From the IMG/VR virus record IMGVR_UViG_3300045988_177506: a DNA stretch of 49,895 nucleotides; one strand, written 5' to 3'. The position numbers were made by a program, and so were the translations under genes. This DNA comes from a virus. Of this stretch, positions 29,344 to 31,936 are shown piece by piece (positions within the stretch are counted from its first letter, which is position 1; the number at the start of each line of letters is the position of its first letter). The notes beneath the pieces were generated by a model. The model ran no database searches. It saw only the letters and a program-made list of their open reading frames with translations, and was not told the origin of the DNA.

Positions 29344-29372
29344 TTGACAAGCGGGGGAAGGTGTGATATAAT
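29344..29372 (+). promoter_or_regulatory. Perfect sigma-70 consensus promoter TTGACA-17-TATAAT for the + strand cassette
   Basis: ttgacaagcgggggaaggtgtgatataat. The 5' leader carries a hairpin AGCTTG...CAAGCT. Confidence 0.7.
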
Positions 29373-29439
29373 GAAGGTGAGCTTGAAAGGAAACGCGAGG
29401 CGCGGCAAGCTTAAAAACAAAAAAACGGAGAAAACAAAA

Positions 29440-30084
29440 ATGAAAAAATTAAACGAAATCAGAGAAGAAAGACAGGCGAACGCGGCAAGGGTCGCAGAGC
29501 TTAACGAAAAAATTGACAGAGCAGTGAACAGCTGGCGGACGAAGGAGCCGTTTCCGGAAGACTTCGCGGCGTTGGGCGCCGAACTCGCGACGGCAAAGAA
29601 AATCGGGGCGATTTTGAAAAACAATTATAACAACCGACTCGCGGCGGAGGTGCTGCCGGCGTTGGTGGAAATCCTGAAAAAATACAACGGCAAGAAGTAC
29701 GGCGAAAAGACGAAGGAAAAGATGGGCGAAGAGTTCAAAGCGATGACGGGTTGCGGCATTTGGTTAGAGCGTTATGTGTTCTCGCAAAAAAGCAATCACG
29801 CCCATATATACGAGATGCGCGACGGATACAGACACGGCGAAGAAATCGAGTTTTTCACAAATTCAAATAACATCATCAGCGAAGACAACGTTATACAGGC
29901 GCAACCGGCGGAAGCTTTCAGACTTTACGACTTCGGCGAATATATCGAAACACCGGCGGAAAGGGTCGCACAGCTTGCGGAAAAGAAAAAAGAGCTTGAC
30001 GAGATGCGGGCGGCGTTCAATAAAGCGGTAGACGCTTACAACGCTTTGACCGTCAACGGCATTGACCACGAAAAAAGAGCATAA
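29440..30084 (+). CDS. Hypothetical protein (first gene of the GC-rich + cassette)
   Basis: Start MKKLNEIREE with GGAG 9 nt upstream. GC content is visibly higher than in the surrounding genome. Confidence 0.6.
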   Translation: MKKLNEIREERQANAARVAELNEKIDRAVNSWRTKEPFPEDFAALGAELATAKKIGAILKNNYNNRLAAEVLPALVEILKKYNGKKYGEKTKEKMGEEFKAMTGCGIWLERYVFSQKSNHAHIYEMRDGYRHGEEIEFFTNSNNIISEDNVIQAQPAEAFRLYDFGEYIETPAERVAQLAEKKKELDEMRAAFNKAVDAYNALTVNGIDHEKRA

Positions 30085-30098
30085 AGGAGGGCAAAACA

Positions 30099-30836
30099 AT
30101 GAAATTTTACAAAACTTCTAACGGGCTGGAACTTCTGACAGACTGGGCGGGCGATTGCCACGACTGCAAAACGTACAACAAGAACCAACAGAGAGCAAGA
30201 GAGGCGGCGGGGAAGCTTTTACATTCCGGCAATTTGATTTTTGAACACGGAAACACCCCGCGCAATTCTTCCGAATTTGTGGCGAATATGCCTTACACCT
30301 CGGCAAGCGACTTTGCGGCGTTGTGGGCGACTTGTGCATATTGTGCCTATCAGATTAAAAACAGACAAACGAAGCTTTATTTGGTGGGTATTGCGTTAAC
30401 CGATGCCCAGGCGGTCAGCGTGTGGAGAGATTGCGAAAGCAATTATATTTTTGAAATTGTCGGCGAAGAACCGAAGGCGCAGCCGATTATATTAAACACA
30501 GATAGCGACATCGCAAGCGTGGCGGTTGACTGCGGAAACGGCAATATTATTACTTACGAAAAAGCAAACGGAGCGGACGGGGACACCAGCGTTATAATTT
30601 TCGCAAGCTACGACGCATATATTAAATATTGCGCACGTCGAAATATTGACACTTTGCACGACGTGAAAAACATTGCAACGGCGAGATTTAACGGGGCGAA
30701 TATATGCCAATCTGATTGCGCCGGGCTGCACGGTGAAAAAGAGATCCCGGACGCCGAAAAGGTTTACACGCTTTCGGGCAGATTTGCTATAAAAGCTAAA
30801 GATGATGCCGTATATTTTGTAAAAATTGAGGAGTAA
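30099..30836 (+). CDS. Hypothetical Cys-containing protein (second gene of the + cassette)
   Basis: RBS AAGGAGG. ORF. Confidence 0.6.
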   Translation: MKFYKTSNGLELLTDWAGDCHDCKTYNKNQQRAREAAGKLLHSGNLIFEHGNTPRNSSEFVANMPYTSASDFAALWATCAYCAYQIKNRQTKLYLVGIALTDAQAVSVWRDCESNYIFEIVGEEPKAQPIILNTDSDIASVAVDCGNGNIITYEKANGADGDTSVIIFASYDAYIKYCARRNIDTLHDVKNIATARFNGANICQSDCAGLHGEKEIPDAEKVYTLSGRFAIKAKDDAVYFVKIEE

Positions 30837-30839
30837 AAA

Positions 30840-31883
30840 ATGGTTGAAAACGTTTACAACGGCGAAGACATAGCCGAATTTTTAACCGGCTGCGGGTGCG
30901 GGTGCGAGTTTCGCGCTCGTACCTTTTCGCCCTCTTCGGTTGTGTATTTCTTTGATTTAATAAACCCAATGACCACGGCGGCAAAAATGCGGGCGGCGGT
31001 TCGGGCGGTCGCCTTAACAATTCACAAAACGGCGATTTTAACAGATGGCGGGAAGTATAACTTTGCCATCGCGATCCCACGCGAAAACCGAAGCTTCCCC
31101 ACCTTTTACGACGTAGCAAACACCGGGCAGACATCCCCAAAAGATGGAGATATAACCTTCGGGATAAAAGAGGACGGGGAAAGGCTTACGGCAAACATCA
31201 ACAGCCTTCCGCACCTGCTTATCAGCGGAGCGAGCGGCAGCGGCAAAAGCGTTTTTATGCATTCGGTCATTGCGTCGCTTTCGTGTTTCTCTGCCCCTTA
31301 TAAATGCGATTTTGTGATGATTGACATGAAAGGCACGGAGCTGACACCCTGGCACAATTCCCGCCGGCTTATTCGTCCAGTGATAACGAACGCACGCGAG
31401 GCAGTCCAAGCCCTTGGCGACGTCGAAGCAACAATGAACAATCGATATAAAAAGCTCATAGCCCGCGGAAAAATTGACAACTCGGCGGGCGATTTCCCCC
31501 GGCTGGTGGTTTTCGTCGACGAACTGGCAGATCTCATGCTTTACAAGAAAAAGGAAGCAACAAGGTTTTTAACCAGCATAGCACAAAAAGGCAGGGCGGC
31601 GGGGGTTCATTTGATACTCGCAACGCAGCGCCCCTCGGTGGATGTTGTAACGGGACTAATTAAAGCGAACATTCCGGCGCGCGCAGTTTTCTCCACTACT
31701 TCCGCAATCGATAGCATGGTAATGCTCGGACACAAAGGAGCGGAACAGCTCAAAGGCAAGGGCGATAGCCTGGTGAAACTCCCCAACGGTACCGAATACC
31801 ACGTACAGGCACCAAATTTTACGGCGCAAATGATATACAACGTCACCCACCCGCGCCGAACACTCCCGGACATTTTCAACTAA
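30840..31883 (+). CDS. FtsK/SpoIIIE-family P-loop DNA translocase-like ATPase
   Basis: Walker A GASGSGKS, Walker B [10 protein letters not shown], and [26 protein letters not shown], a motif typical of FtsK/SpoIIIE/TraB-type motors. Confidence 0.7.
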   Translation: [347 protein letters not shown]

Positions 31884-31893
31884 TACACATACC

Positions 31894-31936
31894 AAAAAAA
31901 GGCGGTTTCGAAATTGCGTGCCGTCTTTTCTTTTAT
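31894..31936. terminator. Bidirectional terminator-like hairpin between the convergent + cassette and the end of the - early operon
   Basis: A7 - GGCGGTTTCGAAATTGCGTGCCGTC - TTTTCTTTTAT. Confidence 0.45.

Follow-up and report, generated by a model that had tools for sequence, protein, structure and literature searches.

A predicted FtsK-type DNA motor without accessory domains, and two proteins of unrecognised family, in a host-promoter-type operon of a gut-metagenome siphophage

The virus record IMGVR_UViG_3300045988_177506 (49,895 nucleotides, the whole of which is referred to here as the window) comes from a gut-metagenome phage, and we describe a three-gene operon at positions 29344-31935 on its + strand, which comprises open reading frames (ORFs) 1, 2, and 3. 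From sequence comparison, we put at about 0.5 the probability that this is a modular accessory operon driven by host RNA polymerase and making a soluble FtsK-type DNA translocase together with putative adaptors. A previous examination of the letters alone (hereafter the sequence-only reading) had regarded the block as an independently transcribed, compositionally distinct accessory unit, and we reach the same view on the basis of its own promoter, its own terminator, and a shift in GC content at third codon positions (GC3). Phage FtsK-like accessory genes, and the family PHROG 1358, are already known; new here are the two uncharacterised partner families, the bare-motor architecture, and the fixed position opposite the packaging genes.

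ORF3 encodes a predicted FtsK-type motor without other domains

ORF3 (347 amino acids; 30840-31883, + strand), already named an FtsK/SpoIIIE ATPase in the IMG annotation, corresponds to the α+β motor of the FtsK/SpoIIIE family. It scored 123.2 bits against Pfam PF01580 (cut-off 24) and matched PHROG 1358 over residues 79-337 (E = 1.1e-62), and its best match among solved structures was the motor of Pseudomonas aeruginosa FtsK (PDB 2IUU/2IUS; 2e-49, ~40% identity over residues 71-340), to which it is near-identical through one 23-residue block. The Walker A motif (GASGSGKS, residues 130-137, nucleotides 31227-31250), the Walker B motif (residues 223-232, nucleotides 31506-31535), and the conserved arginine block LATQRPS (residues 260-266, nucleotides 31617-31637), all on the + strand, align to P. 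aeruginosa FtsK and are invariant in three lineages. The full FtsK/SpoIIIE motor signature that had been read from the letters is therefore intact on alignment and not degenerate. Homologues in two of the related loci (which are numbered L001, L002, and so on), L015 (72% identical) and L004 (42%), share this architecture and keep the invariant catalytic residues, and the ratio of nonsynonymous to synonymous substitution rates (dN/dS) of ORF3 against five relatives was 0.05-0.10.

The α+β motor, with its Walker A and Walker B motifs and ATQRPS block, is what ORF3 has in common with cellular FtsK/SpoIIIE proteins such as P. aeruginosa FtsK. Cellular FtsK, however, also has an N-terminal membrane domain, a linker, and a γ winged helix-turn-helix domain, whereas ORF3 is without them, is phage-encoded, and lies beside two unknown proteins. 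Specifically, the highest 19-residue Kyte-Doolittle mean in ORF3 was 1.29, with no transmembrane segment; the FtsK alignment starts at residue 63, inside the α subdomain; and the protein ends only 25 residues past the last residue aligned to the β domain, which leaves no C-terminal γ domain. The FtsK of L015 likewise has no γ domain, and that of L004 has an acidic tail only. As judged from these alignments, ORF3 is a bare α/β motor with no other domain. The γ winged-helix domain is responsible for KOPS/SRS reading and for XerD activation. Because it has neither an anchor nor a γ domain, ORF3 alone could neither move DNA through a septum nor recognise polar sequences, nor could it activate XerD. 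By homology, and from what is known of FtsK biochemistry, ORF3 would form a hexameric ring on double-stranded DNA and translocate using ATP.

We rule out a packaging role for ORF3 because a separate terminase large subunit (628 amino acids; 25812-27698, - strand) and a separate SPP1-type portal (24181-25785, - strand) are present, in agreement with the sequence-only reading, which had held that the motor is not the packaging ATPase. Its further suggestion of DNA delivery, if taken as delivery across a membrane, fits poorly with the lack of any hydrophobic segment in all three proteins. Its leading suggestion had been a partition or segregation function for an episomal, plasmid-like prophage; FtsK-family proteins do act in chromosome segregation, and an FtsK-like gene stands beside a replication initiator gene in temperate phages of the Bacillus cereus group. 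However, no integrase, ParA/ParB, plasmid Rep, or repressor-type lysogeny module was found among the genome ORFs scanned, a set that covers only part of the small ORFs, and the ParA-type NTPase and centromere-binding protein that define a partition system are thus missing from that scanned set. Further, the close clade of the phage had no match in 185,579 species-representative bacterial genomes, and ORF3 has no γ domain for site recognition. We regard partition as the least probable of the roles considered here. Separately, a GCGCGC stretch at the ORF3 N terminus, which has a look-alike at 28523-28735 on the - strand, was considered as a motif or gene remnant and dropped, as it is not conserved in L015 or L004.

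ORF1 and ORF2 match no known family

ORF1 (214 amino acids; 29440-30084, + strand) starts with ATG, with GGAG 10 nt upstream, and ORF2 (245 amino acids; 30099-30836, + strand) is acidic, with an isoelectric point of 5.3. Both had been described as proteins of no recognisable family, and indeed neither matched any family in Pfam, PHROG, NCBIfam, or PADLOC, nor was a nuclease or other effector domain recognisable in either. The same absence of known families was seen when 79 diverse members of the ORF1 family were scanned singly. By tblastn, ORF1 had no match in GenBank phages or PLSDB plasmids, and ORF2 none in GenBank phages.

A profile built from close and 40%-identical ORF1 relatives recovered 560 clusters (at 50% identity) with E <= 1e-3, of which 354 had E values below 1e-10; the length is ~215-245 amino acids in nearly all of the 560. 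A narrower ORF1 alignment search of collections returned one viral contig and two contigs of metagenome-assembled genomes (MAGs); the relatives found in bacterial genomes were confined to Acutalibacteraceae and Ruminococcus MAGs. The family shares the motif KYxGKxYGEKTxxK, and the nearly invariant residues of ORF1 (N62, Y82, G84, K85, G88, T91, K94, and N150) lie in or around the head region of its AlphaFold2 model. This model (predicted local distance difference test score (pLDDT) 91.7; predicted template modelling score 0.80) shows two long helices paired as a hairpin, together with a short helix, a sheet of four strands, and a long helix at the C terminus, which suggests a coiled-coil stalk carrying a small α/β globular head with a conserved polar pocket. 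Compared with solved structures, the model gave nothing significant beyond generic coiled coils, and its significant structural relatives were all uncharacterised proteins of uncultured siphoviruses. ORF1 is predicted to be soluble and near-neutral, without a hydrophobic segment, and its dN/dS was 0.11-0.25. Two candidate assignments for ORF1 were rejected: GKKYGEKT is not a P-loop, as it forms a loop between two helices in the model and no NTPase family or fold was matched, and the protein is not a WXG100-type type VII secretion substrate, as it lacks a WXG motif, although a Trp at the turn of the hairpin is conserved.

Full-length ORF2 had only seven matching clusters, all at least 83% identical. 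Its N-terminal domain (approximately residues 1-122) occurs as a stand-alone gene of 116-128 amino acids after the ORF1 homologue in three other lineages (L015, 54% identity; L004, 49%; L002, 35%), and its C-terminal half is acidic and lineage-specific. ORF2 has a dN/dS of 0.14-0.15 and no hydrophobic segment; its AlphaFold2 model was unusable (pLDDT 39).

Host-type transcription signals delimit the operon

The operon begins with a σ70/σA-type promoter at 29344-29372 on the + strand, in which TTGACA (29344-29349) and TATAAT (29367-29372) are separated by a 17-nt spacer. The claim that the block has its own perfect consensus promoter was borne out, as all 12 positions match and TG extends the -10 element, and both hexamers are conserved in L001, L006, L010, and L014; the TTG start given at 29344 in the ORF listing is the -35 hexamer itself. 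Directly 5' of the -35 element lie three phased A-tracts (AAAAAAT-like, with a 10-nt period; 29302-29339, + strand), which are invariant in five relatives and have the appearance of curved DNA or an UP element. At the distant locus L012, too, a similar phased tract lies ahead of the promoter of the ORF1-family gene. In total, the 49.8 kb contain six 12/12 TTGACA-17-TATAAT promoters (at 1639 and 29344 on the + strand and at 47523, 35468, 28073, and 27903 on the - strand), compared with ~0.006 expected by chance, and the phage seems to depend wholly on the primary sigma factor of its host, even for the late operon. Under this reading, host σA RNA polymerase would transcribe the operon without phage factors, and the host-type signals would imply early or constitutive expression.

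The 5' leader contains a hairpin at 29379-29412 on the + strand (ΔG -9.5 kcal/mol, z = -1.4; outer stem GAGCTTG/CAAGCTT), the stability of which is ordinary for its composition (16/200 shuffles fold equally well). In the alignment, five relatives retain the outer stem AGCTTG/CAAGCT, and two of them, L001 and L014, have a deletion of the inner CGCG-agg-CGCG stem; the structured leader described earlier is thus present and conserved in its outer stem, with an inner stem that varies. The hairpin may stabilise the 5' end of the mRNA, or the palindrome may be an operator. The genes are separated by 14 nt (ORF1-ORF2) and 3 nt (ORF2-ORF3), and Shine-Dalgarno sites are present. The operon ends, as had been proposed, at a bidirectional intrinsic terminator (31890-31935, both strands) with a hairpin at ~31897-31929 between an A-run and a U-run, and this terminator also serves the - strand operon that converges on it and has its end at 32078. 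The 71-nt stretch 31880-31950 containing it folds with a ΔG of -17.6 kcal/mol (z = -2.6). A promoter and a terminator of its own are traits by which the operon resembles a moron.

Composition, divergence, and gene content together point to long residence of the block

A second moron-like trait is a nucleotide composition unlike that of the neighbouring genes. The GC content of ORF1, ORF2, and ORF3 is 0.49, 0.46, and 0.51, respectively, compared with 0.405 for the genome, and their GC3 is 0.619, 0.512, and 0.580 compared with 0.397 +/- 0.061 for 83 - strand ORFs (z = 3.6, 1.9, and 3.0). ORF1 and ORF3 thus have the two highest GC3 values in the genome, with ORF2 intermediate. The GC contrast noted by the sequence-only reading is real as a GC3 shift, but its figures of 47-60% against 33-40% were overstated, as the stretches 3163-4846 and 22935-23510 also have a GC content of 0.46-0.51.

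The contrast had been taken to suggest horizontal acquisition. We note that the GC3 excess of the ORF1-family gene is seen again in L002 (0.61-0.65 compared with 0.40-0.53) and L012 (0.55 compared with 0.31-0.43) and that there is no recurrence in the GC-richer L004; because the same shift occurs in distant lineages, it is no mark of recent arrival. Recent acquisition is further contradicted by the presence of the block at the same site, divergent from the terminase genes, in lineages in which ORF1 and FtsK are only 40-42% identical, and the idea of an imported promoter by its being of the same perfect type as five other promoters of this genome.

Within the close clade, synonymous divergence was highest for ORF1 (0.34-0.66), followed by FtsK (0.22-0.31) and the terminase large subunit (0.09-0.19), and at the DNA level ORF1 is the least conserved stretch of the compared region 27600-32300, below even the adjoining non-coding spacer. 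Purifying selection acts on each of the three genes (dN/dS 0.05-0.25). Gene-sized insertions and deletions inside the block involve a 73-amino acid gene, ORF2, and extra small genes. The 73-amino acid gene lies between the leader and ORF1 in L001, L006, L010, and L014 and is missing from the window (29413-29453), and the sequences suggest that the window lost it by short-homology recombination between similar ribosome-binding-site/start sequences. The site between the terminase and replication operons is empty in none of the relatives where the junction was captured, and single genes within the block come and go. These comparisons point to a block that has long been resident, with alleles and genes shuffled among related phages, and not to a recent arrival in this genome.

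ORF1 is the common element of a variable gene block

The gene order ORF1-ORF2-FtsK of the window is preceded by the 73-amino acid gene in L006, L007, and L010, and the order in L001 and L014 is 73-amino acid gene-ORF1-FtsK, ORF2 being missing from these close relatives. L015 has the order 67-amino acid gene-ORF1-ORF2 N-terminal domain-FtsK, and in L004 the block is expanded to a 127-amino acid gene, ORF1, a 60-amino acid gene, the ORF2 N-terminal domain, genes of 125 and 111 amino acids, and FtsK. In L002, ORF1 (with an N-terminal extension) is followed by the ORF2 N-terminal domain, and there is no FtsK; in L016, ORF1 heads a replication module. L012, L017, L018, and L019 have ORF1-like genes with unrelated small genes, and neither FtsK nor the ORF2 N-terminal domain occurs within 5-8 kb of them. 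Counted over the more distant ORF1-family loci, six have neither gene within that distance.

ORF1, the ORF2 N-terminal domain, and FtsK are therefore found in the same order in the window clade, L015 (72% ORF1 identity), and L004 (40%), and in five architectures the block and the terminase genes are divergently oriented, one of these architectures having a P22-type portal and a different terminase. The co-conservation of the three genes, on which the sequence-only reading had made its proposal depend, accordingly stands to the extent that the trio recurs in three lineages, and fails to the extent that ORF2 is absent from L001 and L014 and FtsK from L002. An obligate three-gene cassette is contradicted by these losses and by the conservation elsewhere of only the N-terminal half of ORF2. 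On the gene orders compared, ORF1 is the common anchor of the block, and ORF2 and FtsK are each dispensable.

In the operon model that we favour, ORF1 and the ORF2 N-terminal domain would supply targeting or loading of the motor. Several points weigh against this model. ORF1-family genes mostly occur without FtsK and phage FtsK genes elsewhere occur without ORF1; the adaptor idea therefore draws on three lineages only. Further, promoter strength says little about timing, because there are six perfect promoters and two of them precede the late operon, and any specific cellular role is a guess among several.

Comparison with known FtsK-family systems and candidate roles

FtsK/SpoIIIE-like genes are present in 371 GenBank phage records, mostly of Bacillus (241) and Mycobacterium (52) phages, and also in phages of Geobacillus, Virgibacillus, Cytobacillus, and Clostridium. 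The phage proteins of PHROG 1358 (from Bacillus phages and Mycobacterium phages of the cluster J type, e.g. Omega, and including Andromeda gp67 and BceA1 P27) are, like ORF3, FtsK ATPases encoded besides a terminase, and PHROGs classes the family as moron/host takeover. ORF3 differs from the GenBank phage proteins in sequence (identity <= 44%, with none covering >= 80% of the query) and in context, as BceA1 has the order membrane protein-FtsK-replication initiator and the window has ORF1-ORF2-FtsK divergent from the terminase genes. Given these 371 records, which amount to PHROG 1358, and the like annotation of ORF3 by IMG, the idea that the locus is an undescribed system is not supported. Phage FtsK/SpoIIIE genes have been treated as accessory, their function without tests (PMC13299392, PMC3359378, PMC3601020), and genome papers describe the proteins, also without tests, as sporulation-related or as possible concatemer handlers (PMC3359378, PMC3601020, PMC10294663, PMC13299392).

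The distribution among hosts bears on a role in sporulation, in which ORF3 would mimic SpoIIIE and help to trap phage DNA in the forespore of a spore-forming Clostridia host or disturb translocation of the host chromosome. Such a role is consistent with the concentration of these genes in phages of endospore formers (the 241 Bacillus records), with the restriction of ORF1's bacterial-genome relatives to Acutalibacteraceae and Ruminococcus MAGs, and with genome papers and a gut-phage survey that list FtsK-like genes as sporulation-related (PMC3359378, PMC3601020, PMC10294663). However, SpoIIIE is a septal membrane channel, whereas ORF3 has no transmembrane segment and no γ domain; FtsK-like genes also occur in phages of the non-sporulating Listeria, Staphylococcus, Enterococcus, Ralstonia, and Mycobacterium; and the association is inflated by the bias of the database towards Bacillus phages. 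We consider this role unlikely, albeit the foremost of the alternatives.

FtsK-like domains are thought to scan or strip DNA in the Ssp/Dnd and MADS defence systems. When the operon was compared with defence proteins in PADLOC, the ORF3 motor matched the FtsK-like C-terminal domains of SspH/DndH (SspH, 5e-39) and MADS mad8 (8e-26), as well as HerA models, and these matches bear on a conflict role in which the translocase would scan or strip DNA, either to exclude superinfecting phages and mobile DNA or to counter a host defence that targets DNA. The moron-like traits of the operon (a promoter and a terminator of its own, the GC3 shift, and genes that are present in some relatives and absent from others), the faster evolution of ORF1 and ORF2 than of the backbone, and the adjoining - strand genes with DarA_C and Lar/NrdR-type zinc-ribbon domains could all be read in this way. 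The PADLOC matches, however, are to the generic FtsK domain only: the large N-terminal regions of SspH/DndH and mad8, and their partner genes, are absent here, such that no complete defence system is present. Moreover, no nuclease or effector domain is recognisable in ORF1 or ORF2, and dN/dS is well below 1. A conflict role therefore seems to us comparably doubtful. The adjoining genes themselves (32078-32909, - strand, converging on the operon terminator) encode a 63-amino acid NrdR-type zinc ribbon with a weak Lar restriction-alleviation match and a 77-amino acid DarA_C domain protein; in other phages, DarA_C and Lar/NrdR-type zinc-ribbon proteins have an anti-restriction link.

The P-loop domain of the FtsK/SpoIIIE family is also found in the type VII secretion ATPases EssC/EccC and in TcpA, a conjugative coupling protein, but their matches to ORF3 were far weaker (1e-19 to 1e-10, compared with 2e-49 for FtsK), and ORF3 has a single ATPase domain and no FHA or transmembrane region. 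The scores against type VII EssC/EccC models were 82-83 bits compared with cut-offs of 509-778. That the motor is far nearer to FtsK than to EssC was a further ground for rejecting ORF1 as a type VII substrate.

Returning to the favoured model of a soluble translocase with putative adaptors, the operon would handle DNA inside the infected cell, by stripping or clearing bound proteins or by disentangling replicating phage DNA. We tentatively take such DNA handling, to the benefit of the phage, as the likeliest single role, at odds that nonetheless fall well short of even, and we rank it only modestly above the sporulation and conflict roles. Such a function would be helpful but dispensable, in keeping with the sister lineages that have lost FtsK or ORF2. 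A more specific proposal, which we consider improbable, is that ORF1, the ORF2 N-terminal domain, and the bare motor constitute an undescribed phage DNA-translocation machine in which the ORF1 family replaces the membrane and γ domains for targeting. If so, the machine would serve a step of infection not known to need a motor (genome pull-in, forespore entry, or expulsion of competitor DNA), and ORF1, with at least 560 clusters, would be either a new class of motor adaptor or a widespread stand-alone early protein of metagenome-derived siphophages.

Hundreds of sequenced phages carry FtsK/SpoIIIE-like genes, for which the cited genome papers report no tested function, and the locus described here is a very simple case, with a motor without other domains, a three-gene operon, and clean signals. 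Natural variants without ORF2 or FtsK make the contribution of each part directly testable. If the partners target the motor, the locus shows how a virus re-purposes a generic DNA pump; if not, it is one more accessory hotspot. In either case, the ORF1 family is flagged as large and uncharacterised, with a novel fold that is confidently modelled and a fixed site next to the packaging genes.

The phage genome and its non-coding regions

Bases 1-119 of the window are repeated exactly at 49777-49895, and because of this 119-bp overlap the window represents a circularly closed assembly of the whole phage genome of ~49.8 kb. The phage is a member of a clade of ~50-kb siphophages that has so far been seen only in metagenome assemblies. 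A simple longest-ORF call gave 83 ORFs on the - strand and three on the + strand, the latter being the operon, which lies on the opposite strand at the junction of the replication and packaging operons. The earlier description of the operon as the only + strand coding block is correct for ORFs; yet the + strand has another perfect promoter, at 1639, that reads into 1.1 kb poor in ORFs. The - strand packaging/structural operon contains a 58-amino acid gene, the terminase large subunit, the portal, and tail genes, and the - strand replication/modification set contains a DnaB-like helicase/primase, an exonuclease, a Gam-like protein, three methyltransferases, and an HNH nuclease. No tRNAs were found in the genome, and no Rfam family scored above threshold in the window, where sub-threshold matches were confined to two ORF-free regions.

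Between the operon and the packaging operon lies an ORF-free 1.5-kb spacer (27850-29340), which we give as context and do not claim as part of the operon. Its overall nucleotide identity between the window and L006/L010 is 88-91%. Regions next to terminase genes are the usual place of pac sites, cos sites, or terminal repeats, and this location, together with the strong host-type promoter and the inward orientation that the operon would have on a map opened at the spacer, would suit a genome-entry motor: the operon, near a physical genome end, would be expressed first, and its motor would pull in the remainder, as in the first-step entry of T5 or the transcription-driven entry of T7. However, the assembly is circular and related contigs break at scattered positions, a sister lineage is without FtsK, and the motor has no membrane anchor to pull against, and we regard entry as very improbable.

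Same-orientation repeats occur in the spacer, namely GCCAATATTTGRGAA four times (28206, 28982, 29107, and 29125; 0.47 expected by chance), TGTTCGTTTTGTCCATC twice (28180 and 29159), and ACGGAGCGGGC twice. L006, L010, and L014 retain the repeats in the same number and order, at 0-2 changes per 60 nt, and a pac site, origin iterons, and operators are candidate identities for them. In double-stranded DNA conjugation of Streptomyces, TraB and its clt repeats likewise combine a single FtsK-like motor with short same-orientation repeats in nearby non-coding DNA. ORF3, however, scored only 36 bits against the NCBIfam TraB model (cut-off 800), is without membrane association and a C-terminal winged helix-turn-helix domain, and has a counterpart in L004 without such repeats. 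A function of the repeats as motor loading sites is unsupported, as the equivalent spacer of the FtsK-bearing L004 has no comparable repeats.

The spacer also holds two perfect - strand promoters (28073 and 27903) and a structured small RNA candidate. The latter (27915-28073, - strand) has its perfect promoter at 28073-28045 and an intrinsic terminator ~120 nt further on (27944-27923), and sits just upstream of the packaging-operon promoter at 27903. Its 124-nt transcript would fold at -50.8 kcal/mol (z = -4.8; 0/200 shuffles as stable), and the stretch is 95-100% identical in three relatives. No Rfam family was matched, the best sub-threshold hit being anti-hemB (22.9 bits compared with 49.5).

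A second ORF-poor region lies at 1500-2800, where the perfect + strand promoter at 1639 (with TG) is followed by 1.1 kb without a + strand ORF of more than 55 amino acids. This promoter stands back to back with another on the - strand (11/12, at 1564), which drives a 56-amino acid AbrB/MazE-fold gene (1502-1332; Pfam 1.5e-7). Together they may form a regulatory switch that includes a long non-coding transcript. The GC-rich stretch at 3163-4846 on the - strand encodes small Gly-, Arg-, and Asp-rich proteins of unknown function, one of which matches phrog_16490. At 45872-46981 on the - strand, a 369-amino acid protein has matches to collagen-like or tail-fibre-like repeats; it is placed in the - strand stretch 32078-49823 with the methyltransferase and replication genes, away from the structural genes. 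Finally, among the distant relatives, the terminase large subunit of L005 (2516-4777) carries an intein (753 amino acids; Pfam Intein_splicing), and that of the near-identical L004 (2762-4777) is intein-free, at 671 amino acids.

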